Shown here: positions 39,404 to 64,000 of the stretch, in pieces
Layout of the letters: each line of letters opens with the position of its first letter
How positions within the stretch are numbered: position 1 is the stretch's first letter
The notes under the pieces: model-generated
What the model saw: only the letters and a program-made list of their open reading frames with translations
Database searches by the model: none
Told to the model about the DNA's origin: nothing
Assembly (NCBI GenBank): GCA_030704615.1
Contig: CM060732.1
Location: 62,000,001-62,064,000, forward strand
Source of the DNA: Takakia lepidozioides
Lineage: Eukaryota > Plantae > Bryophyta
Length of the DNA stretch: 64,000 nt
Reading direction: 5' to 3'
Position numbers and translations under genes: made by a program

Positions 39404-42400
39404 GACGGGTAGCTTATTGGCTGGCTCAGTTTCTAGTACCACCACCCGCTCCAAATTATGAGAAACTCATCTTCGAGTTCAACTCGATGACTCAACATGC
39501 CTGGGAGGTGCAAGAAAGTGTGCTTAAAACCATTCTGCGGCGCAATGCCCACACAGAGTACTTGGGACGGTTCAAGCAAGGGCCAGACAGACTCAATGTC
39601 TACTGACTGGTTCAAAGAGTGCGTGCCCCTCCTAACGCATGCGGACATAGAGCAGGATATCCAGCGAGTTGCTGATGGTGATATGTCGCCCATTCTTTGT
39701 GCTGATCCTATCATCAGGTTCGGATCAAGTTGCCCAAAACATTATCCTACAATTGCACGTACTAAATTATCAAATTTCACTGCCAGCAGCTAAGTTACAT
39801 GTCGGATTATTTGGTTGGCGGCTGGCTGCAGCTCAGGAACTTCTGGTGGCAAGCCAAAGCTGATTCCATCGACCAGCACGACCGCTCAACTTGCAATTGA
39901 CTCTACCTGGTTCAGTGCTGCGTTCAGAAACCAGTACATTCTACTAAAACCTCCATGTTTGAATACAGACTTCCCCAGTACGACGAAAGAGAACCTTGAC
40001 TATCGAGTTTAAAATTTTCTGAAGATTCATCTGCACTAGACTCGCGTTGCCTCCGCGCAGACTTTAATAGCTGTTGCATGCGCTTTCTTGCCCATCTCTG
40101 GGTCCCCCCTACCACTACCTGCACCCCACCCGACCTATCCGCTCACTCTGCACCAGCTGCTCTCACACTTTGTGTTACCTGGACCCTGCACCCATAGATT
40201 GTACTCATGAGACGTTGTTTGCCGTAGCCTTGTGGCCATTGACCCCGCGCCCAGTTTGAGCGGGAACAAAAGGGACAGAACCTACCTCTGTCGGGGGCTG
40301 ACGTTGGTAGTAAGACTTACCTCCATATATAGAATTCTCTAGAAATCCCTTCACACAAGCATCAATCTGCTGTGTGTGATTTGCCCAAAAACTAGGCCTC
40401 AGGAGGGCCTGGGCTTTTGGCTCAGCCTCGAGACTTTCAAAGTTGGTAAACAGGGGTACAGGCACAATTCCCTTAATAGATTTGAAGAGAGCGTCTCTTT
40501 GGCGAGAGAACCCCGGACAGTGTATCAGAAAATGAATACTGTCTTCAGATTGCCCACACAACGGGCAATTGCACTCTCCCTTTCCTCTCTGCTTCTGTTT
40601 GCTGTTCAAAGGTAGACTTCCTGCCCTGAGTTTAAATTTCAGTCTAGTGCCGAGAGTGGGTAGACCCTAGAGGTCATCCAAGATGTCCTCCCCCACGTCA
40701 CAGACTGGAAACAAGTTCTTCTGCCTAACTTCATTTTCATCAGACAATCTCATGGCAACAGACATGGCTGAGGACCCTACAGCCTCTAAGTCAGATTTAT
40801 CCAGCAGGGTCAAGACTTGCGGATCCAGGTCCAGGTCCTTGAGGATCTCTTCTACTCTCTTCTGCCAGGACTTAGCCTGTTTGACAGGGCGGTCCTGTTT
40901 CCAAGATATAGAGTCGATTAACTTAGGATATCTGGTGTTGGGCATATGTTGCAGCTGACCCCACCATCTGACCTTGAATTCATCTCGTCGGGAGCTTAAG
41001 GACGGAATGCCAAACTCACCCCGAACAGCCACATTAGCTGTTTTGGAGCAAAGTGTAGGAAGGGAGGACGGGGATCTCTTGGCTACCCCACTGCCACTTA
41101 AGATCACTTTCTCCCTCTCCTCTGTCGTTGAATGCTACCACTGCACATTTGCTGACATTAGCCTCTAGCCCCCAAAGATCAAAGTATCTCTTCGCGCAAT
41201 CAATCAACTCCTGGAGATTGGTTGGAGTCTCCCCTATGCCTGCGAAGTCATCCGCAAACATAAGGGCTGGTATGGTGGTATCACCCACCCTTAACCCAAA
41301 TCCCTCACTTTCCACATCCTCGAGGAGTTGATTGATGAGAACATTGAAGAGCATAGGGGAGAGAGTACATCCTTGAGCTACACCTTGGTCTATGTCAAAG
41401 AAGTTGGACTTCTGTCCGTTAACAGTGACACAGCTTTTGGTGCGAGCATACAAGTTGTGGACAACTCTCCACATCTTTCCCTTGATCCCACAAGACCAGA
41501 GGCGGAACCATAGGCCATCTCTCCACACTGTGTCATAAGCCTTTTTGACATCCAGGAAAAAGACATAAGTGGGTAAACCCTAGAGAACTTAGATGGGGAA
41601 TGGTCAGAAATAGAGAGGAGCCAATGGCGGTCTCGCTTATTTAGTAATTACTTCAGTGGGCTCTACAATACGCGAACATTTTAAGGAGGTTAGGATGTAT
41701 ACGATACATATTTGTTCGTACATGAAATCCGGGAGTGAACAGTAGGGATGAGTTCTGTGGTGTAAGTTATAAGGATCCATACTAAGTGTATGGAGGGCTA
41801 TGGGATTAGCGAGTGGGAAGGACTAGATCGACTGTGCCTGCAGCTTTCCGATGCGATCCAATGGAAAGAGCTTGGCTTTTGTGCACACTGGAAAGGTATA
41901 TGAGACCAAAAGTGGTGTGAAGGCGGCTTGCACAACTGCCAACTACTTCTGGAGCGATGCCTTTCGACATCGGAAGCAGGCCAGACTGCCGCCAGCGAAT
42001 TTCGTGAGTCCCGATGAAATCATTTTCGGGACTGACTCTGTCCAATCCATGTATTGTCATTTGCTTTGTGCGTTGCTACGATCAGACGAAGTGGACTTCC
42101 TCACTTCCCTATTCCCGTTCAGTATAATTGAAGGCTTCAAGATGCTTGAACAAAGATGGGAGGAGATCTGTCAAGACATTCAGAGTGGAACTCTGAGCTC
42201 ATGGATCACTGAGCCGGCGATGAGAACTGCTGTCGCACTCCTTGACAGGGTAAGTGAAATAAGGACAACCTTATTGGGTCTTGAATCCAACTAGCATATG
42301 AGACCTGTGCGTGAATATTTTCTCTAGTACTCGAGCAAAGATGAAGTTTTGCATGTTTGTAAGGAGAGTGAATAATGTACCATAGTCAAGCATGTCTACA

Positions 42401-43856
42401 GTCTTAGAATTCAGTCATACGAATCAAAATCTAGTTACAAATTCTTTTGCAATTCATATTTGTCTCTTTATAAGCACGGACCCTCTCCCGACTCTATAAG
42501 TCAGATCACTGCTGCATATGATGATGTCAATGGTTATCTTTGCAGCCCGATCCAAAGACAGCTGAGGATCTGCGGAAGAAATGTGCAAACAAGTCATGGG
42601 GTGGGATTGTGGAACGCCTTTGGCCAAATGTGCAATACATAGTGTGTTACAACAGGTCCTATGGCAGCCTATGTGCCTCACCTAAAACAGTACGCCGGAA
42701 ATGTGCCCCTTGTTTGTGGAGAGTATGGAGCTTCGGAGTGCGCTTGGTTAGGAATCAACTTAAACCCCCATGCTCCATCGAAGGACGTGTCGTTTACAAT
42801 CCTGCCAAATCTTGCATTCTTTGAATTCATTCCACATGGTACGCATAACCATAGAGTCGAGGGTCGCAAGTCAACTTCAATTTCTGAATGGAAGCAGCAA
42901 CCTGCTGTCCAGACTGTGGGGCTCTCAGAGCTACAAGTTGGTCAAGAATACGAAATAGTCCTAACAAACTCTGCAGGTATGGACATGGATTGCTCAATCT
43001 CACCAGTGCTCAGCTGTGCGACACTGCTGAAATCAGTTTGTGTAGGCTTGGTTTTCGTACTTGCTTATAGTGAGAACTGTCTATGTACTTTGATTGGAAG
43101 AGAAATTTTTGGCTCTATCTCTAAAGTCTATCTCTAGAAAAAAGATCAAGTTTCGTTTATATATGTGATGATGGGGTAGAACAGCTTGTTCGTTGATCAC
43201 ATCGGTACCGTATCATGAACTTCACGAGTTTATTTCGTTCAGGACTTTCTCGATATCGACTAGGAGATGTTGTCAAGATCACAGGCTTCTACAACACATC
43301 TCCGCAATTTGCCTACGTTTCACGAAAAAATGGACTGCTCTGTCTTTGCAACGATAGCACCGATGAGAAAGAGCTTCTCTTTGTTGTTAAAAAGGCTGCT
43401 CAATTACTCGAGGAGGCTGCGCCGAGCCTGGAACTTGAGGAATTCACAAGCTATGCTGACCACTCCTCAGTTCCTGGGGGACAATATGATCTTTCTAGGA
43501 TGTTGCAGAGGTGCAGTTCACTGATGGACACCTCCTTTGGATACTACTACATGCAAGGCAGAGTTAGTGGGTTGATTGGAAATGTAGAGCTGTGTGTTGT
43601 GAAGAGCGGTACATTTCGCAGGATGGCTGACCATGCTATGAGCTTTGGAGCATCGGCGCTTCAGTACAAGACTCCTGCAATCATCAACTCTCCCAAACTA
43701 CTTGGTATTCTTAGAGAGGGCGTTATTCAAACATTGCACAGCTCCGAATATCCAGAGACTAAATGGTCGTCTTGGACATTCAAGGATCCCTCATGGGTGA
43801 GTCCACTCTTCATACCTATAGTGCTGTCATCACCTAATTACAAATACCCCTGTTAA
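39404..43856 (+). pseudogene. GH3: GH3 acyl-acid amido synthetase, probable pseudogene (or mis-assembled gene)
   Basis: GH3 motifs: VQESVLKTILRRNAHTEYL, FKECVPL..DIQRVADGDMSPIL, SGTSGGKPKLIP, SPDEIIF..QSMYCHLLCAL, YGASE, GLSRYRLGDVV, QYKTP. Lesions: frameshifts near 39595 and 42645, a damaged donor near 39729, loss of the HYVxFWE segment after SVPG, and a LINE in one intron. Confidence 0.85.
40205..41580 (-). mobile_element. 5'-truncated non-LTR retrotransposon (RTE/RTEX-like RT plus C-terminal CCHC) in a GH3 intron
   Basis: FLDVKKAYDTVWRDGL, QGVAQGCTLSPMLFN, LMFADD, ANVSKC, then CPLCGQSEDSIHFLIHCP. Frameshifted. Confidence 0.88.
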
Positions 43857-44900: not shown

Positions 44901-46205
44901 AGCTGAGGTACTCACGGACCAAGGGAGAGAGTTATTGGGGGAGTTTCAGGCTTTGTGTGATAAAGCCTTGATAGACCACCGCACCACTTCTCGGGATCAT
45001 CCTGAGGCCGATGGCTTGGCAGAGAGAGTTGTTCAGACGGTGAAGAGGGGTTTGCGCAAGTATGGCTTGTAGAAGGGACACCTAGGAGATTGGGATCTTC
45101 AGGTTCCTTGGTTAGCCATGGGCTACAGGTTCAGCAAACAAGCATCACTTGCCTCCTTCTCACCATATTCCTTCTCTTTGGCCGAGAGCTGGATTTGTCT
45201 GCAGCCATTCGTATGGACACTGCTCAAGTCCTTAACCTTGACTATCAGGACATGTGGGTACGTGTATGTGATCAGCGTGCAGAGATGTTCAAGAAAGTCA
45301 TGCCCATGGCTTTTGAGAACATTGTCATTGCACCGTGATACGTTGAGGTATGCCACTATACGTGGTGGAGGATATCTTCCTGGGGTTCGGAGGTTTAGCC
45401 CCGGTAACTATGTTTATTTGCAGCAGACTGCTCCTACGACTCTGGATGTTACTGCAGGGCGTGTTATTCTGAGGGTTCGAGAGGTGTTGCCCTCAGGGGT
45501 CCTGATCTTGGAGGGTCGGGATGGCATGACTTGGAAGGACCATGTGCGTAATTGTGCGCCATGTCACCTTCCCAATGTCAATGGCAGAGTTGACCCAAAC
45601 TTGGCAGTGGTACCTGCAGGTTTGAGGTGCATGCTCTGTGGGTCTGCCAAAGGGGCAGCCACCATGCTAGTGTGTGATCGATGCTCAAGGGGTTGGCATA
45701 TGGGATGCTTGAAACCACCTCTTGATAAGGTTCCTGACGGAGATTGGTTGTGTCCACACTGCTTGGGATAGTGGCAGTGGACATGACTGGAGGCAGCTAA
45801 CAAGACATGGGAGGCCAAGCTCATAGAAGTCAATACATGAGATCCCAAGCTCAAGTTCACAGGTTGCAAGACGGCGACTAACGATGGGGCAACTCTTGCA
45901 CCCGGCCTCTTGATCTATCGAGTTTGAGTGTAATAGGGATAGTGGTGGAGGACTTAGTGAGGCTATGGTCACTATCACATCTTGTGGCTACCTGGATTTA
46001 GAGGGACCTAAGCACGCTAGGGGGGCGATTGTGTGGACTAGTGACTGCCATAGTGGGCAGCATAGTGGCAGCCTAGTGACTGACTAGTTGTAGCCTAGTG
46101 GTTGGACTAGTTGTGGACTAGTGGTGGACTAGTGTGTGGTGTGCACATGTGTTGTGTGGTTTTGGACAGCGATGTAATTGTGTAGCGATATGTATGCGCA
46201 CGACA
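44901..46205 (+). mobile_element. 5'-truncated copy of the DNMT-Gypsy element (integrase C-terminal half, PHD, PPT, 3' LTR)
   Basis: High identity to 57100-58412. Premature TAG at ~45070 and indels. PHD CMLC..CDRC..WHMGC..WLCPHC, PPT AGGGGGGCGA at 46019-46028, LTR at 46030-46205. Confidence 0.95.
46030..46205 (+). repeat. LTR (176 bp, TG...CA)
   Basis: Follows the PPT. Ends match 58236-58412 and 58743-58919 exactly, with different flanks. Confidence 0.9.
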
Positions 46206-46209
46206 AATA

Positions 46210-46490
46210 TCTGCGACTACCAGCATGAGGGTGGTCGCAGCAGTTTTTTTAAAAAAATAACATGCGACTTCCTCGCACCCAATTTTTTTTTTTTTTAAAT
46301 GTGCGACCACCCTCTGCTTGTGGTCGCACCTATTAAAAAAATTGAAAATGCTACGACCACCACCTGCTGGTGGTCGCACCCATTTAAAAAATAAGAAAAA
46401 AATGTGCGACCGCCCCCATCTGGTGGTCGCACCTATTTTTTATTTTTATTTTTAAATTGTCCGACCAACCGTTGCTGACGGTCGCATGAT
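46210..46490. repeat. Array of direct and inverted TGCGACCAC/GTGGTCGCA motifs (CACTA-like subterminal repeats)
   Basis: About 10 motif copies in both orientations separated by A/T tracts. No terminal CACTA seen. Confidence 0.55.
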
Positions 46491-49400: not shown

Positions 49401-50254
49401 GGATGTGCCGGGCATTTGGATGATTTGCACTTGATACCCCTGCATGTGATTAGATTGGCCCACCTGTGAGACTCCTCTAGCGAGAGATCCTTCCCATCTA
49501 GCTTGGCGTGCTTTACTGGCTATTTCCCCACTTGAGCGCCCAAACACACAGAGGAAAAGGGAATATTCCCCGAGTAGAGAAGTTTGGTGGAGATGGGGGG
49601 CATTTTAATCTGACGGCTCGGGTGTGCTAGGAATGATAACCTAGGTTGGGTCTGGCTATGGTGCAACGACGGCTGGCGGCCCAATTTACCCTGCACAATC
49701 ATTTGCTCCACCCTGTGTATGTTGTTGCTGCTAGTGTTAACCCTATTTTAACTAATTCTGGACTTTTGGCTTAAATCCAGACCAAACTTAATATGTATTT
49801 GAATTAAAATTAATTCAAATGTTAATAATATCTTGGATAGTAATGTGTGATTGAACTTTGTGAGATTACAAATGATGTCATACTTGCTTCAAAATGTAAC
49901 ATATAAGATGTCCATTTGACATTGAAGTGCTTGTGAAGTTGCAGTGTAACTGAACAATTCATTGAACGTCGACTGGGAAGTCGAATGATGTAATATTACA
50001 TTATGTTACAATCACGATAAACAAATGTGTCGAATCGAACATGGGATAGACTCATAGTACTCTACCATATTTGATATAAGTTGATAGTAATTTTGATTGA
50101 ATGTTCATGCAGACAAGCACAATATTCATAGACAATGCCATTGGAATGATGTTTTGGGTGTGAGAAGGGCAGTAAAATATTAAAATAGCTTGAAACATTA
50201 GGAAGATGACCTACTAGGACAGTAAAATAAGGTTTGGGGTGTAACTAGATATAT

Positions 50255-50490
50255 TGTGCCTGAGGCCTTTGGGGCTGTGACGGGCTGTGAGGGGCTGTGA
50301 CAGGCTGTGCCTGAGGCCTTTGAGGCTGTGACGAGCTGTGAGGGGCTGTGACAGGCTGTGCCCAGTGGCCTGTGGGACTGTGACGGCTGTGACCAGTGAG
50401 CTGTGTGGGCCTGTGCTGGTCTGTGGTGGCCCGTGTTGACCTGTGGATGGCCTGTGCTGACTCGTGGAGGCACTGGTGGACTAAGGACTG
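50255..50490 (+). repeat. Minisatellite upstream of gag (10-bp GGGCTGTGAC-like units with a 51-bp higher-order duplication)
   Basis: 51-bp unit at 50255-50305 and 50306-50356, followed by degenerate CTGTG-containing units. Confidence 0.85.
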
Positions 50491-50682
50491 GCATGTGGTC
50501 TGGAAGGCCGAATTTTGAAGCTCGTGGAGGGCGGTTTGAGGAGTATCTTCATGATATTCCCATGGTCATGCAAGTTCAGGTGTAGGCTATGTTAGGAACT
50601 TAGTATTCCAAACCATAAGCCGCAACAGGTTCTCTACCCGGTTACCTTGTGGAGAGGGGGTTAGGGGCATGTTCATGACCGG

Positions 50683-53600
50683 TTGAGTGTCAACACGGAG
50701 GTGCCACTAGTTGCTGGGGACAGTGCCGGTTCGAGCACTAGCGATACTAGTGGGTACACGAGACGAGGTGTGCGGTTTAGGCCACCTTCACCTCCTGTGT
50801 CTTCCACGGAAGGTTCTGATTCGGATTGTGAATCAGGAGGGCTCATACCGGCGGTGCAAGTTGTTTCTTTGCCATTGTTGTGGGACACAATGGAGGAGAT
50901 GTATGGAGCTACCAAGGGGCCACGAAGGTACTCTGGGGCGGTGGGCACCATTGAGTTGGATGATTTTATCCAAGAGTTTGATAGTTGGTGTGATCTGCAG
51001 CAAATGCGCAATCCACAACTATTTACGCCGTTCATGGCATGGAAAGGGCTGTTTCAGCACCTTGAGGGGCCGCCTATGGATGATTACCATGAGTTCAGGC
51101 GGGGGCATGAGGTTGAGATCGAGGAGTGGAGGATGTACTGGTCACCCGACTATGTCTCCATCACTAGGGGCACTAGAGCCACGAGGGCAGTGGCTACACC
51201 TGCCGCTGCACCGGCAGCTTTAGCAAGTAGCAGTGGGACTGGTGGTACAGTAGCTACGACATCCACCCAAGCCACTACCGCACCAGCACTAGCACCCGTG
51301 CCTGCCTTCAACCCTGTTGTGGAGTTCTTCGAAGAGTTGAGAGGGAACTACCAAGGGGTGAGGACAGAGAAGTTGCGGAGCTTGCAAGAGTTCCAACGGA
51401 AGCCGACCGAGAGCTTGAGGGAGGCTTTCACTCACATGAGGCGCTTGATAAATGTAACCCAAGGGGTTACGGAAGCTCAGGCAGTCCAATTCTGGTATGG
51501 GATATTGGACAAGGAGCTGAGGAGAAGGGTGCGGGATGCAATTCTCCTACAAGCGGCCCAACCCACCTTAGCAAATGTGTTTGTGCTGGCAGAGCGGATA
51601 GAGCTCAACATGGTGGAGGAACGAGTGGTCATGGTGGGATTTGCTAAGGAGACACCACGGGGTAGTGGTGCTCCTAGCCAACCACTACCTCAACGTGCTC
51701 AAGGCAACAAGGGGGCTCAGGTGAAGCTCAGGGAAGGGCAGAGAGGACCTCAGATGCAGGGGTCTCTCCCTTCATTTGCTGGCCAACAACGGGCGGATGT
51801 GGTGTGTTGGACATGTGGAGGACCCCATGTCAAGAAGGATTGCCCAGAGGGAGGCAAAGGGTCGGCACATGCACAGCCTGCACAGTTGCAGTGTGGGCAT
51901 TGTGGCAAGCACGGGCATGGAGAGGCCCAGTGTTATAGTTTGCATCCTGAGTTGCGCCCAGGCCAGTTCCAAGGGAACAATGGTGGCCGGGGGCGAGGTG
52001 GAGCAGCCCAGAGAGGACGAGGTGGCCAGCCACGAGGTGCAGGCCAAGGGCAAGCTCAACGTGGCCAAGGACGCGGAGGTCAGGGTGTTGACCAAGGCAT
52101 GGCCAACCGGCTTCAGCAGCTAGAGCAGAGGCTCGCTACCATGGCTACAGCTCAGGTGGTACCGGCTCTAAGGCCGGATGGTCCACCTCCTGCTCCTGAG
52201 GGAGGAGATATGGGAGGCATGGGATTCATGTGTGGAGCAGCACTACCACTAGTGCAGGTGGAGTCTGCTGCAGCCGTGACTCGAGGAGCAGCACGAGTTC
52301 CTGAGCCACGAGGTGCAGAGGTGGAGTTGGATCCACAGCGTGGGGAGGCAAGCCGTCAGGCTAGGCTTCCTCAGTCATTCACATTGGCGGAGACAGTGTC
52401 GACGCCATCCATGGCACCTAGTTCTCGCCCGACTATTACTATGCCATTGGGGAGAGCTACACGGGCAGCACCACTACCTAGTGTTGCCAAGGCTACGGCA
52501 GCTAGTGTGCTGTTAGGAGCGGCCACATCTGTGTGCCAGGCTCCATTGTTCTCGGCTACCATGATTGCGATGCCGGGGATAAGACCAGCTGAGGTGTTCA
52601 GGCTGGCAGCTACACTCTGTGAGAGTGGGGAGGTTACTTCATCTTCTGCGGAGATAGTGGGAGGTGTAGTGCCGGAGGGATCCTCGGATTTGAGGGCCAA
52701 GACTGCCACGGCGGCGCCATGGCAAGCTGCAGCTGCCAGGTTGATGGAGCTGCCAGCTAGGCCAGCCATTGAGCACGCCATGGTGACACCCGGAGTTGTC
52801 ATGTTAGACAACCAGGATGGCATTTTCTGTTTGAGTGGACCGGCAGGCAAGAGGTACCGGCCACTGCGAGTCTTGTTGGACTCGGGAGCTCAGCCACTGA
52901 TGCTGGGCAGAGCTGCTATTGCAGGTTTGGGCCTCACGGAGGCGGATATGGAGCCTTGTCCTTTCCAGATACAGACGTCTCTGGGAAGATCGGAGCAGGC
53001 TCGGGGCATGACACGGCATGAGTTGGCTATCAGACTACGGCCGGATCACCCTACAGATGGCTCAGTGATGCGAGCCAAGGCCATTGTGACAGACGCAGTC
53101 TCATACGATGTCCTGGTTGGTGGGGCAGTGTTGTACCCCATGGGCTTCACCCTGGATTTTTGGGAGGAGTCAGCTTCCTATAGGCCTGCATGGCAGTCAG
53201 GGGAGGGCCGGCGTGTGCAGCTCCCTGTGACGTTCATAGGAGGAGTTGCGGTTGCCCAGCGAGGCAAGATGCCGACACTAGCAGCATTCACAGCGGCAGT
53301 GAGTTGGCCTAGAGAGTTGCTTGAGGGCAATGCTCATTCAGAGGATGTACCACCTCCGGGAGAGCAGGATGACATGTATGGTATGGCGGAGTTGCCTACC
53401 ATGGTTGCTCAGACTCCATTGTGGGGCACGAGCAAGGATTTGCAGCGGGATGCTGATCGACGGGTGCGACAAGCCTGGGTGGAGGCTTTTGTACCGTCAG
53501 GAGAGGAGGAGAGTGTGGGGATTGCACCAGGACCACCTCAATTGTCTCCATTGGACACCACACCTATTGTGTGGCAGTCTCCGGATGAAGGCATTTGTCT

Positions 53601-54840
53601 TCTGGACTTGTTTGGCGGGATCAGCACCGGATTGGCTGCTGTGTTACAGGCAGGTGTACGAGTTTGGCGTTACCTGTATGTGGAGAGGGATGAGACTGCA
53701 CAACGCGTTTCACTTCGCCATGTTGCTCAGTTGGTGCAGCGGTACCCTGAGTTGTTGTCGGTGTCTGCAATTCGTGGATATCAGCAAGCCTTGCCAGCAG
53801 ACATTTCGTTGCTGGGGGCGCAGGATTTGGAGCGGGTTGGCTCCATTGATCTGGTAGTGGCAGGTTGGCCCTGCCAAGGGCATTCATCAGCCGGGCATGG
53901 CAATGGATTGCGAGACTCGAGGTCGGGTCTGTTTTGGGAGATGGTGCGGGTTTTGCGCCACTTGCAGCTTCATCAAGCTGTATCTCCAGCATACATCTTG
54001 GAGAATGTGCCACTGATGGGCGATTCTCAGGCCAGGGTGATGGCCAGTGTGCATCAAGTCCGGTCGTGGCTTGGGTCAGTAGTGTTGCTAGATGCAGCTA
54101 CAGTGGGGTCACGGGCTCATCGTCCACGGCTATGGTGGACTAACATGATGCCACCCGCACTGCTCAAGCGTGCATTTGATGGGGTGCAGCGGCCAGCACA
54201 GCTCACAGTGGATAACATTCTGGACACAGGGAGGCAGTCTCAACGTGTGAGACACGATGACCGTTCGCCTTTGGCAGTGGTCAACAAGGTGGGTCAACCA
54301 CGAGCAGCATTACCTACACTGCTCAGCTTCCCAGGATCGCATGCTTTACGGGATAGTGGACCTGGCCTCCTGTGGGATGCTCAGTTGCAGCAGTTAGTGG
54401 AGCCTAATGCTGACGAGCGTGAGCGGGCAATGGGTTTTACCACTGGTACCACGGCGGTGTCGTCTCTTTCTGAGGCATCACGTCGTCAATTGTTGGGGCA
54501 AGCAATGGATCTCAATTGCTTGACCTGGATTATCAGCTTGGCTCTAGCTGAGCAACGCAGAGTGCGGAATACACTTCCCTCAATGGTCTCTCTGCCTACC
54601 GAGACGGTACAGGCAGTGAGTGGGGGCGAGCATATGAGGACCACGGGGTGCATGCATCCATGGCACATGTGGGAGGTGCTCGAGGTTCAGAGGGAGTTGG
54701 CAGCCAAGGCGGCTGTGATGGATGAGGTTGGGGATTCTTCTCGAGTTGAGGAGGTCCTCAAGGATGAGATGATGGGGCAGGATGATGCCTTGTCATTGAC
54801 TGAGCAGGTAGGGAGTACTGCTCAAGAGGTTGCAGCATAG
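50683..54840 (+). CDS. gag-pro: ORF1: Gag (capsid, two zinc knuckles, RGG region) - aspartic protease - DNMT3-like cytosine-5 methyltransferase
   Basis: QRKPTESLREAFTHMRRL (Gag homology region), CWTCGGPHVKKDC and CGHCGKHGHGEAQC (51805-51935), VLLDSGA (52879) with YDVLVG (protease), MTase motifs at 53593-54510. First AUG is at 50890. Confidence 0.93.
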   Translation: MSVNTEVPLVAGDSAGSSTSDTSGYTRRGVRFRPPSPPVSSTEGSDSDCESGGLIPAVQVVSLPLLWDTMEEMYGATKGPRRYSGAVGTIELDDFIQEFDSWCDLQQMRNPQLFTPFMAWKGLFQHLEGPPMDDYHEFRRGHEVEIEEWRMYWSPDYVSITRGTRATRAVATPAAAPAALASSSGTGGTVATTSTQATTAPALAPVPAFNPVVEFFEELRGNYQGVRTEKLRSLQEFQRKPTESLREAFTHMRRLINVTQGVTEAQAVQFWYGILDKELRRRVRDAILLQAAQPTLANVFVLAERIELNMVEERVVMVGFAKETPRGSGAPSQPLPQRAQGNKGAQVKLREGQRGPQMQGSLPSFAGQQRADVVCWTCGGPHVKKDCPEGGKGSAHAQPAQLQCGHCGKHGHGEAQCYSLHPELRPGQFQGNNGGRGRGGAAQRGRGGQPRGAGQGQAQRGQGRGGQGVDQGMANRLQQLEQRLATMATAQVVPALRPDGPPPAPEGGDMGGMGFMCGAALPLVQVESAAAVTRGAARVPEPRGAEVELDPQRGEASRQARLPQSFTLAETVSTPSMAPSSRPTITMPLGRATRAAPLPSVAKATAASVLLGAATSVCQAPLFSATMIAMPGIRPAEVFRLAATLCESGEVTSSSAEIVGGVVPEGSSDLRAKTATAAPWQAAAARLMELPARPAIEHAMVTPGVVMLDNQDGIFCLSGPAGKRYRPLRVLLDSGAQPLMLGRAAIAGLGLTEADMEPCPFQIQTSLGRSEQARGMTRHELAIRLRPDHPTDGSVMRAKAIVTDAVSYDVLVGGAVLYPMGFTLDFWEESASYRPAWQSGEGRRVQLPVTFIGGVAVAQRGKMPTLAAFTAAVSWPRELLEGNAHSEDVPPPGEQDDMYGMAELPTMVAQTPLWGTSKDLQRDADRRVRQAWVEAFVPSGEEESVGIAPGPPQLSPLDTTPIVWQSPDEGICLLDLFGGISTGLAAVLQAGVRVWRYLYVERDETAQRVSLRHVAQLVQRYPELLSVSAIRGYQQALPADISLLGAQDLERVGSIDLVVAGWPCQGHSSAGHGNGLRDSRSGLFWEMVRVLRHLQLHQAVSPAYILENVPLMGDSQARVMASVHQVRSWLGSVVLLDAATVGSRAHRPRLWWTNMMPPALLKRAFDGVQRPAQLTVDNILDTGRQSQRVRHDDRSPLAVVNKVGQPRAALPTLLSFPGSHALRDSGPGLLWDAQLQQLVEPNADERERAMGFTTGTTAVSSLSEASRRQLLGQAMDLNCLTWIISLALAEQRRVRNTLPSMVSLPTETVQAVSGGEHMRTTGCMHPWHMWEVLEVQRELAAKAAVMDEVGDSSRVEEVLKDEMMGQDDALSLTEQVGSTAQEVAA
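53593..54510 (+). other. C5 cytosine DNA methyltransferase domain within ORF1
   Basis: Motif I LLDLFGGISTG; II YLYVERD; III PADI; IV DLVVAGWPCQGHS (catalytic PC at 53869-53874); V DSRSGLFWE; VI YILENV (54001); VIII DAATVGSRAHRPRLWWTN; IX ERERAMGF..GTT; X RRQLLGQAM. Confidence 0.93.
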
Positions 54841-54846
54841 CAACCA
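54838..54846 (+). promoter_or_regulatory. Candidate stop-codon readthrough signal UAG-CAA-CCA (CARYYA)
   Basis: Single stop between ORF1 and an in-frame open pol. Same context in copy 2 at 63716-63724. Confidence 0.8.
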
Positions 54847-57800
54847 CGGGACGCGTCCTCTACCTCTAAGCCCACTGGACTTAAGGTTGTAGTTACGGAG
54901 GACAATTGGGAGCCTGACATTGGACCCATTGTCACCGGAGGAGAGAAACGACGTATACGGCGGTTCCTAAGGGCTTACAGGAATTGCTTTGCCTTCAGTT
55001 TGAAGGACTTGGGAGCATTGAAGGGTCAAGAGATCCGTATTGAGTTGGCCACTGACACGCCAATCTTTCGGAGACCCTATAGATACAGTGACATGGAGAG
55101 GTCTTTGATTCAGATGAGGACTCAAGATCTCTGGGAGGCAGGTTTGGTGGAGCTCTCTGGTGGAGAGTATGCTTCAGCCACAGTGATGCCAGCCAAGAAG
55201 GATGTCTATGGCAATTGGACGGAGAGACGTATGTGCGGTGATTACTGGCCTGTAAATCGTCAGACCAAGTCCGATAAGTATGCCATGCCAACACCAGAGG
55301 AGATCTTTGATGCCATCGGGCATGCTAAGGCCTTTAGCACTTTGGATTTACGATCCGGATATCACCAGTTGCCAATCAAGGAGGCGGACAAGCAGAAGAC
55401 GGCATTCTGGGGGATCAATGAGCACGGCAAGGATTGCCTATATCAGTGGCGGTTCTTACCATTTGGGCTTAAGAATGCTCCTGCAGAGTTTCAGAGAGTC
55501 ATGGATAGGATTCTAGCAGGGGTGGACTTTGCTCGGTGCTACATAGATGACATCATCATCTTTAGTGTTACAATGGAGGAGCATGAGAGACACCTTCAGG
55601 TGGTATTGGAGCGCTTGAGAGCGCACGGATTGAAGTTGCATCCGGGGAAGTGCAAGTTTTTCCACAACCAGATTGAGTATCTGGGTCACATGATATATTC
55701 TGGAGGATTGGGGGTACAGCAGACTAAGGTAGAGGCCATTGCACAAATTCCACGCCCCACGGATGTGAGCCGAGTTCGAGCTTTCATGGGGTTGGCAAAC
55801 TATTATAGACGGTTTGTCAAGGGATTTAGTACCATTGCAAAGGCTCTAACCAAGCTGACCAAGGTGGACCAGGAGTGGCAATGGGAAGATGAGCAGGAAC
55901 GAGCTTTTCAAGAGCTCAAGGCGAGGTTGACCTCGGCGCCTATCTTGAGACGACCTATCAGGGGGCGTCCCTTTCAGCTGCATACGGATTGGAGCATGCT
56001 GGGGCTTGGAGCGGTGCTCACACAGGTGGATGATGAGGGAAGAGAGTTCGTAGTGGCTTACGCTAGCCGCTCGAACAACGCTGCAGAGGCTAAGTACAGC
56101 TCATATGAGGGAGAGTGCTTAGCTGCAGTGTGGGCCATGGCACACTTCAGGTGCTATCTATACGGCAATCTTTTCACCCTTGTCACGGATCACCAGCCAC
56201 TCAAGTGGTTGATGGAGTCAGACAAGCTTACGGGGAAGCTTGCACGGTGGGCACTTATACTCCAGGAGTATGACTTTCAGGTTGTGCATCGACCGGGTTT
56301 GGTCAATCGGGATGCGGATGGATTGAGTCGCAATCCATGCATGAGCCAGCAGGATGACACTGGAGCTCGGTGGCATGGTGAGACGGACGAGGAGATGGTG
56401 CCGGGATGGCACGCATCTGCATTTTTGTGTATCTTGGCATCGGGAGGTCAGATTGGACCTACAACAGGGATGACTGTAGACGGAGTGTCTGAGGACCCTG
56501 AGGCTAGTGATGAGCTAGGTGGTGCCAGAGATATACATGAGGATTCGGCTGTGTTGGACTACCTCCGCACGGGAGACACGGCAGCCATTGTGACTGCCAG
56601 GGAGAGGGATCGGATCCTACAACGAGCCAAGAGGTTCAAGTGGGAGGGGATACACCTACTTCGAGTGTGGGAGGGTGGTCGGGTGAGGATTGTGCCTCAC
56701 CCCACACAGCGTGCACGGTTAGTGCGGCATGCCCATGAGGAGTTGGGGCATTTTGGAGTGCGACGCACTCACAGTTTACTGCAGGGGCAGTATTGGTGGC
56801 GTGGTATGCATACAGAGGTGCAACAGTTTGTGGCTAGGTGCATGGTGTGTGACAGGGTGCGTGCTTCGTTTAACGCCCCTACACCACAGTTGCATCCTTT
56901 ACCTATCATGGGATTGGGCTACAGATGGAGTCTTGACTTCGCAGGACCGTTGCCACTGACTATGCGCCACCACAGATATGTGTTGGTGATGGTGGAGCAC
57001 TTCTCCAAGTGGATTGAGTTGGTTCCATTGCCTGACAAGGCTAGTGAGGGGGCTGCGTATGCATTCTTGGATCGTGTGCTTAGCCGATTTGGTGCTCCAG
57101 CTGAGGTACTCACGGACCAAGGGAGAGAGTTCTTGGGGGAGTTTCAGGTTTTGTGTGATAAAGCCTTGATAGACCACCGCACCACTTCTCGGGATCATCC
57201 TGAGGCCGATGGCTTAGCAGAGAGAGTTGTTCAAACGGTGAAGAGGGGTTTGCGCAAGTATGGCTTGCAGAAGGGACACCTAGGAGATTGGGATCTTCAG
57301 GTTCCTTGGTTAGCCATGGGCTACAGGTTCAGCAAACAAGCATCACTTGCCTCCTTCTCACCATATTTCCTTCTCTTTGGCCGAGAGCCGGATTTGCCTA
57401 CAGCCATTCGTAGGGACACTGCTCAAGTCCTTAACCTTGACGATCCGGACGTGTGGGTACGTGCATGTGATCAGCGTGCAGAGTTGTTCAAGAAAGTCAT
57501 GCCCATGGCTTTCGAGAACCTTGCCATTGCACAGCACCGTGATACGTTGAGGTATGCCACTATACGTGGTGGAGGATATCGTCCTGGGGTTCGGAGGTTT
57601 AGCCCTGGTGACTATGTTTATTTGCAGCAGACTGCTCCTACGACTCTGGATGTTACTGCAGGGCGTGTTATTCTGAGGGTTCGAGAGGTGTTGCCCTCAG
57701 GGGTCCTGATCTTAGAGGGTCGGGATGGCATGACTTGGAAAGACCATGTGCGTAATTGTGCGCCATGTCACCTTCCCAATGTCGATGGCAGAGTTGACCC

Positions 57801-57975
57801 AAACTTGGCAGTGGTACCTGCAGGTTTGAGGTGCATGCTCTGTGGGTCTGCCAAAGGGGCAGCCACCATGCTGGTGTGTGATTGGTGCTCAAGGGGTTGG
57901 CATATGGGATGCTTGACACCACCTCTTGAGAAGGTTCCTGACGGAGATTGGTTGTGTCCACACTGCTTGGGATAG
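54841..57975 (+). CDS. pol: ORF2 (Pol): reverse transcriptase - RNase H - integrase - PHD finger, in frame with ORF1
   Basis: No stop in 54841-54999. RT: LDLRSGYHQ, LPFGLKNAP, YIDD (55540). RNase H: TDWS, EGECLA, TDHQPL, DADGLSR. Integrase: HEELGH..CMVC, WSLDF, TDQG, GLAER. PHD C4HC3 at 57832-57966. Confidence 0.95.
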   Translation, partial: QPRDASSTSKPTGLKVVVTEDNWEPDIGPIVTGGEKRRIRRFLRAYRNCFAFSLKDLGALKGQEIRIELATDTPIFRRPYRYSDMERSLIQMRTQDLWEAGLVELSGGEYASATVMPAKKDVYGNWTERRMCGDYWPVNRQTKSDKYAMPTPEEIFDAIGHAKAFSTLDLRSGYHQLPIKEADKQKTAFWGINEHGKDCLYQWRFLPFGLKNAPAEFQRVMDRILAGVDFARCYIDDIIIFSVTMEEHERHLQVVLERLRAHGLKLHPGKCKFFHNQIEYLGHMIYSGGLGVQQTKVEAIAQIPRPTDVSRVRAFMGLANYYRRFVKGFSTIAKALTKLTKVDQEWQWEDEQERAFQELKARLTSAPILRRPIRGRPFQLHTDWSMLGLGAVLTQVDDEGREFVVAYASRSNNAAEAKYSSYEGECLAAVWAMAHFRCYLYGNLFTLVTDHQPLKWLMESDKLTGKLARWALILQEYDFQVVHRPGLVNRDADGLSRNPCMSQQDDTGARWHGETDEEMVPGWHASAFLCILASGGQIGPTTGMTVDGVSEDPEASDELGGARDIHEDSAVLDYLRTGDTAAIVTARERDRILQRAKRFKWEGIHLLRVWEGGRVRIVPHPTQRARLVRHAHEELGHFGVRRTHSLLQGQYWWRGMHTEVQQFVARCMVCDRVRASFNAPTPQLHPLPIMGLGYRWSLDFAGPLPLTMRHHRYVLVMVEHFSKWIELVPLPDKASEGAAYAFLDRVLSRFGAPAEVLTDQGREFLGEFQVLCDKALIDHRTTSRDHPEADGLAERVVQTVKRGLRKYGLQKGHLGDWDLQVPWLAMGYRFSKQASLASFSPYFLLFGREPDLPTAIRRDTAQVLNLDDPDVWVRACDQRAELFKKVMPMAFENLAIAQHRDTLRYATIRGGGYRPGVRRFSPGDYVYLQQTAPTTLDVTAGRVILRVREVLPSGVLILEGRDGMTWKDHVRNCAPCHLPNVDGRVDPNLAVVPAGLRCMLCGSAKGAATMLVCDWCSRGWHMGCLTPPLEKVPDGDWLCPHCLG

Positions 57976-58224
57976 TGGCAGTGGACATGACTGGAGGCAG
58001 CTAACAAGACATGGGAGGCCAAGCTCATAGGAGTCAATACATGAGATCCCAAGCTCAAGTTCACAGGTTGCAAGACGGCGACTAACGATGGGGCAACTCT
58101 TGCACCCGGCCTCTTGATCTATCGAGTTTGAGTGTAGTAGGGATAGTGGTGGAGGACTTAGTGAGGCTATGGTCACTATCACATCTTGTGGCTACCTGGA
58201 CTTAGAGGGACCTAAGCACCAGCT

Positions 58225-58234
58225 AGGGGGGCGA
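58225..58234 (+). promoter_or_regulatory. Polypurine tract
   Basis: AGGGGGGCGA just before the TG of the 3' LTR. Same sequence at 46019-46028. Confidence 0.8.
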
Positions 58235-58235
58235 T

Positions 58236-58412
58236 TGTGTGGACTAGTGACTGCCATAGTGGGCAGCATAGTGGCAGCCTAGTGACTGACTAGTTGTAGC
58301 CTAGTGGTTGGACTAGTGGTGGACTAGTGGTATACTAATGTGTGGTGTGCACATGTGTTGTGTGGTTTTTGGACAGCGATGTAGTTGTGTAGCGATATGT
58401 ATGCGCACGACA
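58236..58412 (+). repeat. 3' LTR (177 bp, TGT...ACA)
   Basis: Follows the PPT. Built of GGACTAGTGG-like units. Three copies in the window share the same ends. Confidence 0.9.
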
Positions 58413-58742
58413 GCTGTCAAGTTATTTTACCACTAGTGTGAAACTAGCTAGGAAATAGCTAGCTTTCACATATTGACATTTGGGATTGGCCCAAGTGTCA
58501 ATCCAGGGGTCAAGGCAGATTTAGGCCCTGGAGTGGTTAGCTTCACGGCAAGCGCGGAAGGCTCATCTTTCTCGAGTTGAGCCTCACCGCGCCTAGCTAT
58601 GGCGCCGTAGTGTGGATTCCCCATGGCGTGGGGTGCACTTGGCTTGACTTGTATTTGAGTGATGAGGTTATATATGCATGAGTTTATGCTTCAGCTTTGT
58701 GAGCTCGCATGAGCTTGTGCTTGTATTCTTCTTCTTTATCAT

Positions 58743-58919
58743 TGTGTGGACTAGTGACTGCCATAGTGGGCAGCATAGTGGCAGCCCAGTGACTGACTAG
58801 TTGTAGCCTAGTGGTTGGACTAGTGGTGGACTAGTGGTATACTAGTGTGTGGTGTGCACATGTGTTGTGTGGTTTTTGGACAGCGATGTAGTTGTGTAGC
58901 GATATGTATGCGCACGACA
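58743..58919 (+). repeat. Additional LTR copy (solo LTR, or 5' LTR of copy 2)
   Basis: Two mismatches to 58236-58412. No PPT before it and no matching flanking TSD. Confidence 0.88.
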
Positions 58920-59475
58920 TACTTCTGCACAGGCGAGCAGGGGAGGAAATGCGAAGACTCATAGCAGGAGAAGCAATGCTGACGGATGAGGCCAGCGGGG
59001 CTCCAAGGGTTGATGGAGAGGCGGCGGAAGGAGGCTGCAGATTGAGTTCCACTTTACTGAGGCAATCGCAAATTTCTGTAGAGACTTGATAACTGTATGA
59101 TTGTCTCTCTTATACTGGAGCTGATGTAGATGGACCCAGGCCTTGGGTCTGCATGTTGAGCATGGTTCACTTTCTTTTTCCTGGCAGTGAAGTTGTCTGT
59201 GCCTTGTGGGGGTGGTGACGGGGCAATCTGGTGCCTGTTGTCGCCGATCCCTGACCTGTAAATTGCACACTGAAGAAACACGAGCAGTAACAGGAAGACG
59301 GAAACCATTGTAAGCCAACAATAATCGCTGGCGAGAGATGCGAATTAAACCAAGTTGATGGAACTTCAAGCTGGTCTTGGCCTTGGATTCCATGCAAAGA
59401 CGGCCACATTACAGCAGGCCGCCTGTCCATAAGCCATGAAGGTGCTGCGCAGTGCATCTGCTCTTGAAATCGCCC

Positions 59476-59586
59476 CAATTCCTGGTTTGTAGTCTCTAGG
59501 TCGAATAAGGCCTGGGCTACAGCCTCTTCAAACTCATCAGGCTCGAGCCCCTTCTCCTTCTGAATCTTCCTGCGTGCTGTAAACAT
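59476..59586 (-). pseudogene. RPS7: Processed fragment of 40S ribosomal protein S7 (eS7), N-terminal 37 codons
   Basis: [37 protein letters not shown] matches the plant eS7 N-terminus, continuous across the AQ/ALF junction. Similarity ends after NQEL. Confidence 0.8.
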
Positions 59587-61333
59587 GGCTGCTGCCTTGC
59601 CGTCCTGAAAGCTCGAGGAGGCAGGCCCACGCGCAGAGAAAAGCAAATCGCCTCCAGGGTGTGATACCCCACCCAACTGAGGTCGAGTTTTGGAGTTAAT
59701 GAGCTCTTGGTGCCTGGAGAAGCCTGGAAAAGAACGGCCTCGGGAACCCGTAGATAACCTGGGAACAGGTTGTAATTGCAAAAACGTTTTGGTGTTAAAA
59801 AAAAAAAGGGCCTTTTTGATCTAATTTAAATGCTTAAAGAGCCCGGTTGGTCATATCTTTGTCAAATGAGCTCCGTTTGACTTGGTTTTTGAGGGGATAG
59901 CTGCAGAAAGGGGAAATCTACCTATCTAGGTTTCTGTTTTTGGGACTCTGCTAAAAATCTATGGAATTTTTAGAGTGTGAGTGTGTCGTGAAAGATCCAC
60001 AATTCTGTTTCTAGAACCAATTCTGGTCTATTTGAGAGACAAATATGTGGATGTCCTCCTTGTATGGCTGAGGGAAATGAGGACGTAATTGAAGGGCAGG
60101 TCTCTTCTCTTAGCTTGTGCACACAAGGGGACAGGATTTATGTTTCCCAAGGAACTCAGACTGATTTGAGTGGAGAACAGTTGGACGAGTTGATTGCATA
60201 CTGGGAGTCAGGCATTAGCAGTAGACAACAGACTGCTGTAGTTGGCGTTGAGGGCCTTAATATCGCTTTGGGCAGTCAGAACTCTGTTGGAGCCAGCAGT
60301 TCTGCAGCTGTAAGTGAAATACCAAAGTGGGTGAAAAAGCTAGGCTTGGAACACAGCCAAAGACAGCCCCGGGGACCAAGGTGTTCAGCCACAAGGCTGT
60401 GGTGTACTGGAGCAGAGGAGCAGGAGCTACACAAGTTTGTGCAATCAGACAGCGTTGCAGCTGGACACGCTCTGCACAAGGCAACCAGGAGCGGGGGTTC
60501 ATTAGCGAGGACAAGTTTGTTCTGTTTGAAGGAGATGCAGTCATTCGCAATGAGGACACCCGCAACCGTCTCAAAGCTTTCGAGTTGAGAGACTATCAGA
60601 CCCTACCTTTGTTTTCTTTAGTGTTCAGTGAGCGGGAGATAGCAGAGTGTTGCTTTGTCTCTACCTGGCAGAAAGAGGAGGAGGGTTGGTTAGAGCGAGC
60701 TACTGTAGCTTGGGACAAGCTTAGTGGCAGGTTTCTGGACATAGATATACACCTTACCATCATGCAGAGCGAGGCACTTTCAGAGAAGTCTGGAAGTTGA
60801 TAGCATAGATCAGGATTAGATCTTGCTTGGGCGGGCTTCTATTCTTCCCCTCCATCTCTGTACTATTTTCATTACCTTGTACTTGTAGTTGCCAAAGCCT
60901 CTCTTGGTGGAGGCCAGTCAGTCCGGGGTTTTGGGCTGGGATATTCTGCAGGATCAGCATTGCAGCTGGATTTTGGTGTGGGGGTGTTGATGTTTTGATT
61001 TCTTGTGTTTGGATCCCCCCCCCCCCAACACCTGCATGCTTGACTGTGCGCCATGTTGGTTTTGTGTGGGCGCTTGCTTTCATAGGGATTAGACCGGATT
61101 TGATCACCGGTCAATCCTAGAGTATGCTATCGGTGGTGAGGCTGGAGTGATGACCAGCAAGACCACCAGTGTTTCTTCTATGGTGAGGCTGGGTTGATGA
61201 CCAGCCAACCATAGGAGTTCTTGCGGTGGATGCAGGTGCAGGTGCCCTGAGCCATTGGGATATGACCCTTAAACTGCAACAGGTGCCCACCCGTGTCACT
61301 ATTAGAATTAGTACTAGAGCCCTCTAGTGTCAC

Positions 61334-64000
61334 GTGGGGGAGGTGCACATTGTGAGTGTCATCACGGAGTTACCCAAGGGTTTTGAGGGGAGTACGGCTA
61401 CAGGCAGTAACAGTGAGAGTGGGTTCACAAGACGAGGTATTCGGTTCAGACCACCTTCACCGCCACCCTCAACTAGTGCAGAGTCAGACACAGACTCGGA
61501 GGCTTTATCAACAGGTGTGCAATTTCATTCGCCATTGTTGTGGGACGACATGGAGGAGATGTATGGAGCTACCAAGGGGCCTCGTAGGTACTCTGGAGCT
61601 GTGGACACAATCGAGTTGGATGACTTTATCCAGGAGTTCGACAGCTGGTGTGATTTGCAGCAGATGCGCAATCCACAGCTATTCACCCCATTCATGGCGT
61701 GGAAGGGACTGTTCCAGCATTTGGAAGGCCCGCCTATGGACGATTACCACGAGTTCAGGCGAGGACATGAAGCAGAGATTGAGGAGTGGAGGATGTATTG
61801 GTCACCTGACTACGTCTCCATTACTCGAGGCATGACGCGACCAGTAGCTGCATCAGTACCGATATCTCCCACTACCAGCACTAGTAGTGGAACAAGTAGT
61901 GCCAGTACTTCTGCAGGTGGTACCAGTTCAAAAGGTGCTACTACTCCTCCTGCCACGACTACAACACATGTGCCTAGATTCAACCCGGTGGTGGAGTTCT
62001 TCCAGGAGTTGCGGAGGAACTACCAAGGTGTACGGACAGAGAAGCTGCGAAGTTTGTAAGACTTCCAGCGCAAAACCCAGTGAGAGCTTGCGAGAGGCCT
62101 ACACTCATATGAGGCGCTTGATAAGTGTGACCCAGGGGTTACTGAAGCTCAGGCAATCCAGTTCTGGTATGGAATTTTGGACAAGGAGCTCAGGAGAAGG
62201 GTGCGGGATGCAACCTGTTACAAGCAGCCCAACCCACATTAGCAGATGTGTTTCTGCTGGCTGAGCGGATTGAGCTCAACATGGTGGAGGAGCGAGTTGT
62301 TACCATTGGGTTTGGCAAGACATGCCTGCACGAGGCGCAGCTGCCAGCCCACAGGCACAAGGGACTGCCCAACAGCGTGGTCAGGGGGGCCAGGTTTCCC
62401 AACCCAAGTTCCATGGAGCTTACAGGGGACCTCAGGTGCAGAGGCCCGTGGCATCTTTTGCAGGCCAACAGCAACCAGGGGTGATATGTTGGACATGTGG
62501 AGGACCCCATGTCAAGAGAGATTGCCCAGAGAGTGGCAAAAGGCCGGCACAAACACAGCCTGCACAGTTGCAGTGTGGGCATTGTGGCAAGTATGGGCAT
62601 GGAGCTGCCCAGTGTTATGACTTGCATCCTGAGTTGCGCCCATGCCAGTTCCAAGGGAACAATGGTGGACGGGGGCGAGGTGGACCAGCCCAGAGAGGCG
62701 CCAGATTTGGAGTAGGTTGGCTCCATTGATCTGGTAGTGGCAGGTTGGCCTTGCCAAGGGCATTCATCAGCCGGGCATGGCAATGGATTGCGAGACTCGA
62801 AGACAAGTCTGTTTTGGGAGATGGTGCGGATTTTGCGCCACTTGCAGCTTCATCAAGCTGTATCACCAGCATACATCTTGGAGAATGTGCCACTGATGGG
62901 CGATTCGTCGCCAGGGTGATGGCCAGTGTGCATCAAGTCCGGTCGTGGCTTGGGTCAGCAGTGCTGCTAGATGCAGCTGCAGTGGGATCACGGGCTCATC
63001 GTCCACGGCTATGGTGGATTAATTTGATGCCACCCGCACTGCTCAAGCGTGCATTTGATGGGGTGCAGCGGCCAATACACCTCATAGTGGACAGCATTTT
63101 GGACACAGGGAGGCAGTCTCAACGTGTGAGACACGATGACCGTTCGCCTTTGGCAGTGGTCAACAGGGTGGGTCAACCACGAGCAGCATTACCTACACTG
63201 CTCAGCTTCCCAGGATCCCATGCTTTCGGGATGGTGGACCTGGCCTTTTGTGGGATGCTCAGATGCAACAGTTAGTGGAGCCTAATGCCGACGAGCGAGA
63301 GCGGGCTATGGGGTTTTCCACTGGGACCGCGGCGGTGCCTTCTTTTTCTGAGGCATCACGTCGTCAGGTGTTGGGGCAAGCAATGGATCTCAATTGCTTG
63401 ACCTGGATTATCAGCTTGGCTATGGCTGAGCAACGTAGAGTGCGGAGTGCATTTCCCTTGACGGTCTCTCTGCCTACCGAGACGGTACAGGCAGCGAGTG
63501 TGGGCGAGCATATGAGGACCACGGGGTGTAGACATCCATGGCACACGTGGGAGGTACTCGAGGTTCAGAGGGAGTTGGCAGCCAAGGCAGCTGTGATGGA
63601 TGAGGTTGGGGATTCTTCTCGGGATGAGGAGGTTCTCAATGATGAGATGATGGGGTTAGGATGAGGCCTTGTCATTGACTGAGCAGGAAGGAGTACTGCT
63701 CAAGAGGTTGCAGCATAGCAACCACGAGACGCGTCCTCTACCTCTAAGCCCACTGGACTTAAGGTTGCAGTTACGGAGGACAATTGGGAGCCTGACATTG
63801 GACCCATTGTCACCGGAGGAGAGAGACAACGTATATGGCGGTTCCTGAGGGCTTATAGGAATTGCTTTGCCTTCAGTTTGAAAGACTTGGGAGCACTAAA
63901 GGGTCAAGAGATTCGCATTGAATTGGCCACTGACACGCCAATCTTTCGGAGACCCTATAGATATAGTGACATGGAGAGGTCCTTGATTCAGATGAGAACT
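61334..64000 (+). mobile_element. Second, degenerate DNMT-Gypsy copy (internally deleted; runs off the window end)
   Basis: gag homologous to 50683-52016 with TAA at 62057 and frameshifts. Joined at ~62698 to sequence matching 53819 onward. MTase motifs IV-X retained, UAG-CAA-CCA at 63716, then the start of RT. Confidence 0.93.

Follow-up and report, generated by a model that had tools for sequence, protein, structure and literature searches.

A 64,000-nucleotide stretch of the Takakia lepidozioides genome (the window) carries a Ty3/gypsy retrotransposon whose open reading frame (ORF) for Gag and protease closes with an intact DNMT3-type cytosine methyltransferase domain. The element (copy 1; 50255..58919, forward strand, as for all of its features below unless stated) was delimited by a depth step, by piece boundaries at 50255 and 58920, and by self-comparison; its coding region is intact, and it lacks the 5' A repeat and the primer site described below. 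Judging from the domain and repeat layout given in the accessible part of one earlier description (de Mendoza et al. 2018, PMC5890265), the kind is already known through KnitGypsy-Dnmt3 of Klebsormidium nitens, and the novelty is smaller than was implied by the sequence-only reading of this DNA, which had proposed a self-methylating land-plant element: the land-plant host stands, but unannotated relatives exist in Marchantia, Sphagnum, and Closterium. We propose that the domain is an active enzyme packaged in the particle, where it would methylate the new double-stranded complementary DNA (cDNA), that Pol would be made by UAG readthrough, and that integration would be of a circle type; taken whole, we consider the chances of this proposal to be evenly balanced. 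A broader version is doubtful, namely, that a green-plant-wide, self-priming PHD-Gypsy lineage predating land plants integrates as permuted circles, makes an active DNMT3 at Gag stoichiometry, and gives rise to copies that are born methylated and number in the thousands in this host.

The methyltransferase domain (53593..54560) has motifs I to X in unrearranged order within one open frame after the protease, and the sequence-only reading was right about both the motifs and their positions (LFGGISTG starts at 53608, YVERD at 53677, GWPCQ at 53863, LENV at 53998, RAHRPRLWWTN at 54112, ERERAMGF at 54415, and RRQLLGQAM at 54481). Its assignment to the DNMT3 type also held up in PDB sequence matches, fold, and Pfam. 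The domain matches PF00145 with an E value of 2.9e-13 and a score of 50.4 bits, the cut-off being 22, and its nearest solved relatives by sequence are DNMT3A/B/C, followed by DRM and bacterial enzymes (best matches DNMT3A, E 6e-12; DRM, 4e-5; M.HhaI, 6e-4). An AlphaFold model built from a 26-sequence alignment has a predicted local distance difference test (pLDDT) score of 92.8 and a template-modeling (TM) score of 0.72 to DNMT3A, and all listed Foldseek matches are DNMT3 structures. By sequence and predicted-fold rank, rather than by tree, DNMT3 is thus its nearest group, with DRM, DNMT1/CMT, and bacterial enzymes further off. In the homologues whose domain is near full length (54 loci and 174 proteins), the catalytic Cys is kept in every locus and in 170 proteins, the other four being gaps; the Glu of ENV is kept in 53 loci and in all proteins, and each of the two motif VIII Arg residues in 172 proteins. 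Catalytic Cys, ENV Glu, and motif VIII Arg are near-invariant in sequences down to ~33% identity. The domain is likely to be an active enzyme.

That the domain belongs to a family rather than to a single insertion, as the sequence-only reading had held, is borne out by its relatives. It is up to 74% identical to proteins of Marchantia polymorpha, 49% to a partly deleted protein of Sphagnum fallax, and 31% to Closterium, and several full-length ORF1 proteins of M. polymorpha contain the same domain (e.g., Mp4g09160, Mp5g06330, and MpVg00370). A profile-free search returned 257 cluster representatives at E < 1e-30, and a search confined to proteins of 3108-5000 residues added two further relatives; viral contigs yielded only phage-type methyltransferases, 29-45% identical over part of the domain. 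Two gene orders are seen. The order protease-methyltransferase-reverse transcriptase (PR-MT-RT) is found in the window, Marchantia, Sphagnum, and Closterium. The order in which the methyltransferase lies between RNase H (RH) and integrase (RT-RH-MT-INT-PHD) is found in 47 of the 218 proteins examined, with a single named member, from Scenedesmus. The domain was therefore either relocated within the polyprotein or acquired twice, and it co-occurs with a PHD finger in both orders. Quick trees of the methyltransferase domain (98 of 164 rows, with 66 of the 106 rows of the RH-MT-INT order left out) and of RT (46 rows, with a single long-branched outgroup, placed among the PR-MT-RT rows) each set the two orders apart and group the window with Marchantia and Sphagnum; the Shimodaira-Hasegawa-like approximate likelihood ratio test (SH-aLRT) gave 100 and 96. 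The ratio of nonsynonymous to synonymous substitution rates (dN/dS) of the domain, computed like motif retention on relatives and not on the host's own copies, is 0.10-0.14 among loci L015, L017, and L027 and 0.07-0.08 between the window and loci L001 and L013, the latter at a dS of 2.5-3, close to saturation. These values indicate strong purifying selection between diverged lineages and, together with the saturated synonymous sites, long retention under selection rather than recent capture. On the same ground of saturation, recent horizontal transfer from mosses was rejected. The element belongs to an old green-plant lineage and is not a one-off.

The coding region is parted by a stop codon. 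ORF1 (50890..54840, its Met aligned to residue 1 of the Marchantia proteins) lies in an open frame spanning 50665..54840 and encodes Gag with two zinc knuckles (51805-51843 and 51892-51933), an aspartic protease (52780..53184, with LLDSGA at 52873 and a weak PF13650 match, E 0.034), and the methyltransferase. The ORF had been read as uninterrupted, which is correct in that Gag, protease, and methyltransferase share one frame, but ORF1 closes in a TAG at 54838-54840, and Pol follows in the identical reading frame (54841..57975). Pol comprises RT (YIDD at 55540), RNase H, an HHCC-DDE integrase with D-X34-E spacing, and a C-terminal PHD finger (57832..57966; PF00628, E 1.7e-9). Every catalytic motif of RT, RNase H, and integrase is present, and the best PDB match of Pol is Ty3 Gag-Pol (E 1.8e-94). 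With its PR-RT-RH-IN order, Ty3-like RT, and DDE integrase, the element conforms to Ty3/Gypsy (Metaviridae). No chromodomain was matched at the integrase C-terminus at E 0.1 in Pfam; the PHD finger, whose best PDB matches are the PHDs of CHD4, KDM5B, PHF12, and KDM5A, stands there instead, and an assignment to the chromoviruses (Tcn1, Chlamyvir) was ruled out by this replacement.

The TAG CAA CCA context of the stop (54838..54846) is a predicted readthrough signal; it is identical in a second window copy (copy 2, below) and kept in related families. We examined 58 MT-RT spacers from fetched loci, 43 of them in frame. At the homologous place, a stop with CAA or CAG directly after it is found in all 18 Sphagnum-type spacers (12 TAG, 6 TAA), a set that includes some single insertions assembled twice, and in all four spacers of a second group. 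The latter four and both window copies fit CARYYA, and UAG-CARYYA is the readthrough signal of tobacco mosaic virus. The Marchantia ORF1 proteins likewise terminate soon after the domain, and one related family has methyltransferase and RT within a single ORF. The TAG at 54838 is not a sign of decay, and readthrough of this conserved UAG is the probable source of Pol. Every Gag would then come with a methyltransferase, which would outnumber RT and integrase, the ratio to be expected of a particle component.

The termini of the element are as unusual as its coding content. Two full direct long terminal repeats (LTRs) around the coding region are absent; the layout is instead A-coding-B-A-B. In copy 1, a polypurine tract (58225..58234) stands immediately 5' of repeat B1 (58235..58412), which terminates in CACGACA. 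It is followed by repeat A2 (58415..58741), which begins with TGTCA, and by repeat B2 (58742..58919), with which the element closes on the right. Two of 179 sites distinguish B1 from B2, suggesting that copy 1 is a young insertion. The B|A junction is a palindrome without strand, GACA-GC-TGTC (58409..58418), and equals the joined form of both integration ends. Contigs with this element, which match with loose ends before 58415 and behind 58741, place A at a 5' end also in other host copies. Five complete relatives (loci L031, L046, L047, L048, and L055) have the layout A-coding-polypurine tract-B-A-B. The ends and target duplications were scored in relatives, the window copy being truncated: they start with TGTCA and finish with CGACA, and a 4-bp target duplication was found at five of eight loci by script and at a sixth (L019) when the homologous end was read. 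Such ends and duplications agree with the TG..CA termini and 4-6-bp duplications of Ty3/Gypsy elements.

No tRNA-type primer site is present in the element family. Rather, the 14 nt that follow A can pair with a site lying 148-179 nt into A, and the match is kept in three families whose sequences differ; in all 10 loci, the best complement was placed at nt 161-179 of A, which was equalled by 0-12 of 500 shuffles, and the RNA fold of the region has a z-score of -3.3. In the window, the predicted self-primer site inside A2 (58563..58576) is complementary to the sequence following the 5' A in other host copies. Complementarity of the primer site to the element's own A points to self-priming of the Tf1 kind. 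Moreover, in all three families, the A2|B2 joint consists of the end of A, before the primer site, and the start of B, after the polypurine tract. Split repeats and a self-priming site of the same kind recur in a more distant family (L042-L080, ~40% identity), which has no conserved stop. The conserved stop, the PHD finger, the split repeats, and the self-primer site had all gone unmentioned in the sequence-only reading.

These features can be accommodated in a single cycle. Transcription would start ~150 nt into A, and the 5' end of the RNA would fold onto the site behind A, priming reverse transcription without a tRNA. Plus-strand synthesis primed at the polypurine tract before B would yield an ordinary cDNA of the form BA-coding-BA, the two ends of which could be joined to give the exact A|B junction observed. 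Integrase would then cut within the left repeat, at its palindromic B|A junction, and the circularly permuted DNA would be inserted with duplication of 4 bp; what is found integrated is, we infer, the predicted cDNA in circular permutation. The circle is favored because the A2|B2 joint coincides exactly with the two ends that the primers define and because the halves of the B|A palindrome serve as the integration ends. The PHD finger would probably tether integrase to nucleosomes. The methyltransferase, packaged in the particle, would methylate cytosines of the new double-stranded cDNA, with the inserted copy arriving premethylated. Self-methylation of cDNA is our best guess, and cDNA would be the likeliest substrate because the methyltransferase is part of the Gag polyprotein, its catalytic residues are conserved, and the enzymes of SymbioDIRS-Dnmt3, a dinoflagellate element, are reported in the accessible part of PMC5890265 to methylate CG de novo in yeast.

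Several observations weigh against this proposal. Copy 1 starts at ~50255 inside leader tandem repeats (surviving part, 50255..50468) and, unlike other host copies, lacks the 5' terminal repeat; without its 5' A and primer site, it is probably unable to start its own cycle. Among the relatives, the target duplication matches at only three of four positions in L024, and L046 shows none. Under a plain circle model, the mirror form A-B-A-coding-B should be just as frequent, yet none of 24 distinct 5' A repeats has B upstream, and an unexplained asymmetry is needed. A third family has no conserved stop, and 10 of its 21 in-frame spacers are without any stop; Gag-level expression of the methyltransferase is thus not universal. 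The residue preceding the catalytic Cys is Glu in place of Pro in 69 of 174 proteins and 30 of 54 loci, so that parts of the lineage, as far as their sequences go, depart from the canonical motif IV. The CpG observed/expected ratio of the element (0.49-0.61) is not lower than that of the host flanks (0.42-0.45) and hence reveals no self-methylation footprint. Finally, the KnitGypsy-Dnmt3 domain gave no DNA methylation in yeast, a result that its authors deem inconclusive and that was shared by human DNMT3B in the same assay, according to the accessible part of the report (PMC5890265).

As regards the ends, the serious rival is a templated route, possible though on the unlikely side, in which B2 is copied from an RNA running through A2-B2, as in DIRS/Ngaro elements, giving a linear DNA with A and B at its ends and no circle. 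It accounts for all the forms encountered, i.e., right ends of the B-A type in A-coding-B-A-B (10 loci), A-coding-B or B-only ends (7 loci), and the missing A-B-A-coding-B form. Against it, both primers are internal to the element, the self-primer being behind A and the polypurine tract before B1, so that cuts at B|A would still be needed; the A|B joint, moreover, falls exactly at both primer-defined ends. Membership in DIRS/Ngaro itself, which has a tyrosine recombinase and no target duplication, was ruled out by the DDE integrase and the 4-bp duplications. Troyka, with CG..CG ends, 3-bp duplications, and, as far as its description was accessible, a distribution confined to animals, is unrelated.

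As regards the enzyme, it is unlikely that it acts chiefly on chromatin at or after integration, on flanks or other copies rather than on cDNA in the particle, guided by the PHD finger of the integrase in an ADD-like manner. This possibility draws on the joint occurrence of domain and PHD in both gene orders and on the nearest solved relatives of the PHD, among them those of CHD4, KDM5 (PHD1), PHF21A, BAZ2, ATXR5, and AIRE, which are readers of unmethylated H3K4; such a resemblance would make the PHD a counterpart of the ADD domain in animal DNMT3. However, unmethylated H3K4 reading requires an acidic residue before the first PHD cysteine, and none is present here. The domain and the PHD also lie on opposite sides of the stop in this element and would probably be parted by the protease. 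Still less probable is retention of the domain for a role other than DNA methylation, whether to bind nucleic acid in the particle, to methylate RNA, or to interfere with host DNMT3. The EC variant of many relatives, the missing CpG footprint, and the inactivity of the KnitGypsy-Dnmt3 domain in yeast would fit such a role, but against it stands the near-invariance of the catalytic Cys, of the Glu in ENV, and of the two Arg residues in motif VIII. That the domain is a functionless passenger captured once in this host is scarcely credible and already largely refuted: decayed copies inside one family do show dN/dS of 0.25-0.47, but the domain occurs in Marchantia, Sphagnum, Closterium, and Scenedesmus, the methyltransferase and RT trees agree on the two gene orders, and purifying selection between lineages is strong.

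Comparison with known systems sets the proposed self-methylating element in context. According to the accessible part of PMC5890265, KnitGypsy-Dnmt3 shares with it the Gypsy domain set and an unrearranged, intronless DNMT3-type domain under purifying selection, and the legend of Fig. 4c implies the same DIRS-like A-coding-B-A-B repeats. It differs in that the present element has a land-plant host and a very high copy level, and possibly also in domain position, the methyltransferase here ending the Gag-protease ORF before a conserved stop and that of KnitGypsy-Dnmt3 being described as lying "in the Pol ORF." The word "PHD" occurs 0 times in the main text of that report, and self-priming, readthrough, and target duplications are not mentioned in its accessible part. 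No Klebsormidium-named sequence was among the matches of our homologue searches, and the likeness to KnitGypsy-Dnmt3 rests on description, not descent. SymbioDIRS-Dnmt3 likewise shares the DNMT3-type domain and the A-coding-B-A-B repeats (PMC5890265, accessible part) but has a tyrosine recombinase where the present element has a DDE integrase. The Tcn1/Tf1-Sushi chromoviruses include moss and club-moss Ty3/gypsy elements that are also predicted to self-prime, according to the accessible part of Neumann et al. (2019, PMC6317226), in whose main text "PHD" and "methyltransferase" occur 0 times. They bear a chromodomain, in contrast to the PHD finger, methyltransferase, and split repeats of the present element. 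Among PHD-bearing Gypsy elements, REM1 of Chlamydomonas is reportedly known, as cited elsewhere. Gypsy-7a_cRei of Chlamydomonas similarly combines a Gypsy polyprotein with a PHD in the green lineage but has near-complete paired LTRs, and no methyltransferase or split repeats are described for it in the accessible part of PMC9940879. A 2025 resurvey cites, in its accessible part, only streptophytes and dinoflagellates, by way of de Mendoza et al. 2018 (PMC12344493). In the literature outside subscription journals and Repbase, we found no land-plant report of this family or of its readthrough, self-priming, or permuted ends; this covers the accessible parts of PMC11982613, PMC8557442, PMC2774666, PMC9940879, and bioRxiv 10.1101/2021.11.30.470311.

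The element family is clearly very abundant in the host. Summed contig depth reached 0.59-1.29 million across the element against 59.8 on a unique flank (run X2), a difference of some four orders of magnitude, in a measure that does not equal copy number and is usable only as "very highly repeated." Copy 2 (61418..64000, forward strand) is frameshifted and internally deleted, its gag part being 76% and its MT-RT part 93% identical to copy 1. The sequence-only reading had counted motifs IV-X in this second copy; they are present but scattered over three reading frames, and a deletion at ~62697 has removed the protease and motifs I-III, making it a broken copy. Copy 3 (44901..46205, forward strand) is 5'-truncated, comprising the end of the integrase, the PHD finger, and a single B, and is 96.6% identical to copy 1. 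Between the window copies, CG and CHG transitions are elevated, with self-methylation and host methylation not separable from such spectra.

A separate, lower-copy repeat (49835-50254) adjoins the truncated 5' end of copy 1; a contig (X5) matches 50010-50255 and then diverges. No left flank of an empty site was found within the window. A high-depth repeat 5' of copy 2 (59930-61400) is unlike the copy 1 leader and holds two short ORFs (59992-60588 and 60318-60800) with no Pfam match; it may represent a second subfamily's leader or a different element. Between copies 1 and 2 lies a fragment resembling 40S ribosomal protein S7 (59167-59820, reverse strand; PF01251, E 1e-4, under the cut-off), probably a pseudogene piece. 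Short inverted and direct repeats with a TGCGACC core (46283-46437) directly follow copy 3 and may be the end of a DNA transposon, and a decayed RT of the long interspersed nuclear element (LINE) type is found at 40205-41579. The other genes of the window are an OSCA/CSC1 channel gene (8128-15013, reverse strand), an oleosin gene (25910-26356), a gene with two B3 domains (33120-34571), and a GH3 gene (41827-43856), and these flanking genes show a land-plant host, probably one outside the seed plants. The last exon of the OSCA/CSC1 gene encodes a long acidic tail with six to seven copies of a repeat of 46-53 amino acids, which has a GSPLIF core and no Pfam match. For an exon of this gene, identity was 73% in Sphagnum and 69% in Ceratodon, against ~58-72% in angiosperms; the 120 matches listed, out of 1963, include none from Marchantia.

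The purpose of cytosine methyltransferases in retrotransposons is an open question that was raised in algae without good genetics. M. polymorpha, a tractable model plant, bears the domain in its ORF1 proteins and brings the question within reach of experiment. The window contributes an intact coding copy, a conserved readthrough stop, and an end structure implying an unusual integration route. Split-repeat elements of this sort are likely to have been overlooked by tools that need paired LTRs. If the proposed route is true, insertion of a DDE-integrase element as a permuted two-LTR cDNA would constitute natural integration via an internal att junction. If the enzyme acts as proposed, bryophyte-type genomes would hold many unrecognized genes for de novo methyltransferases beyond the host set.

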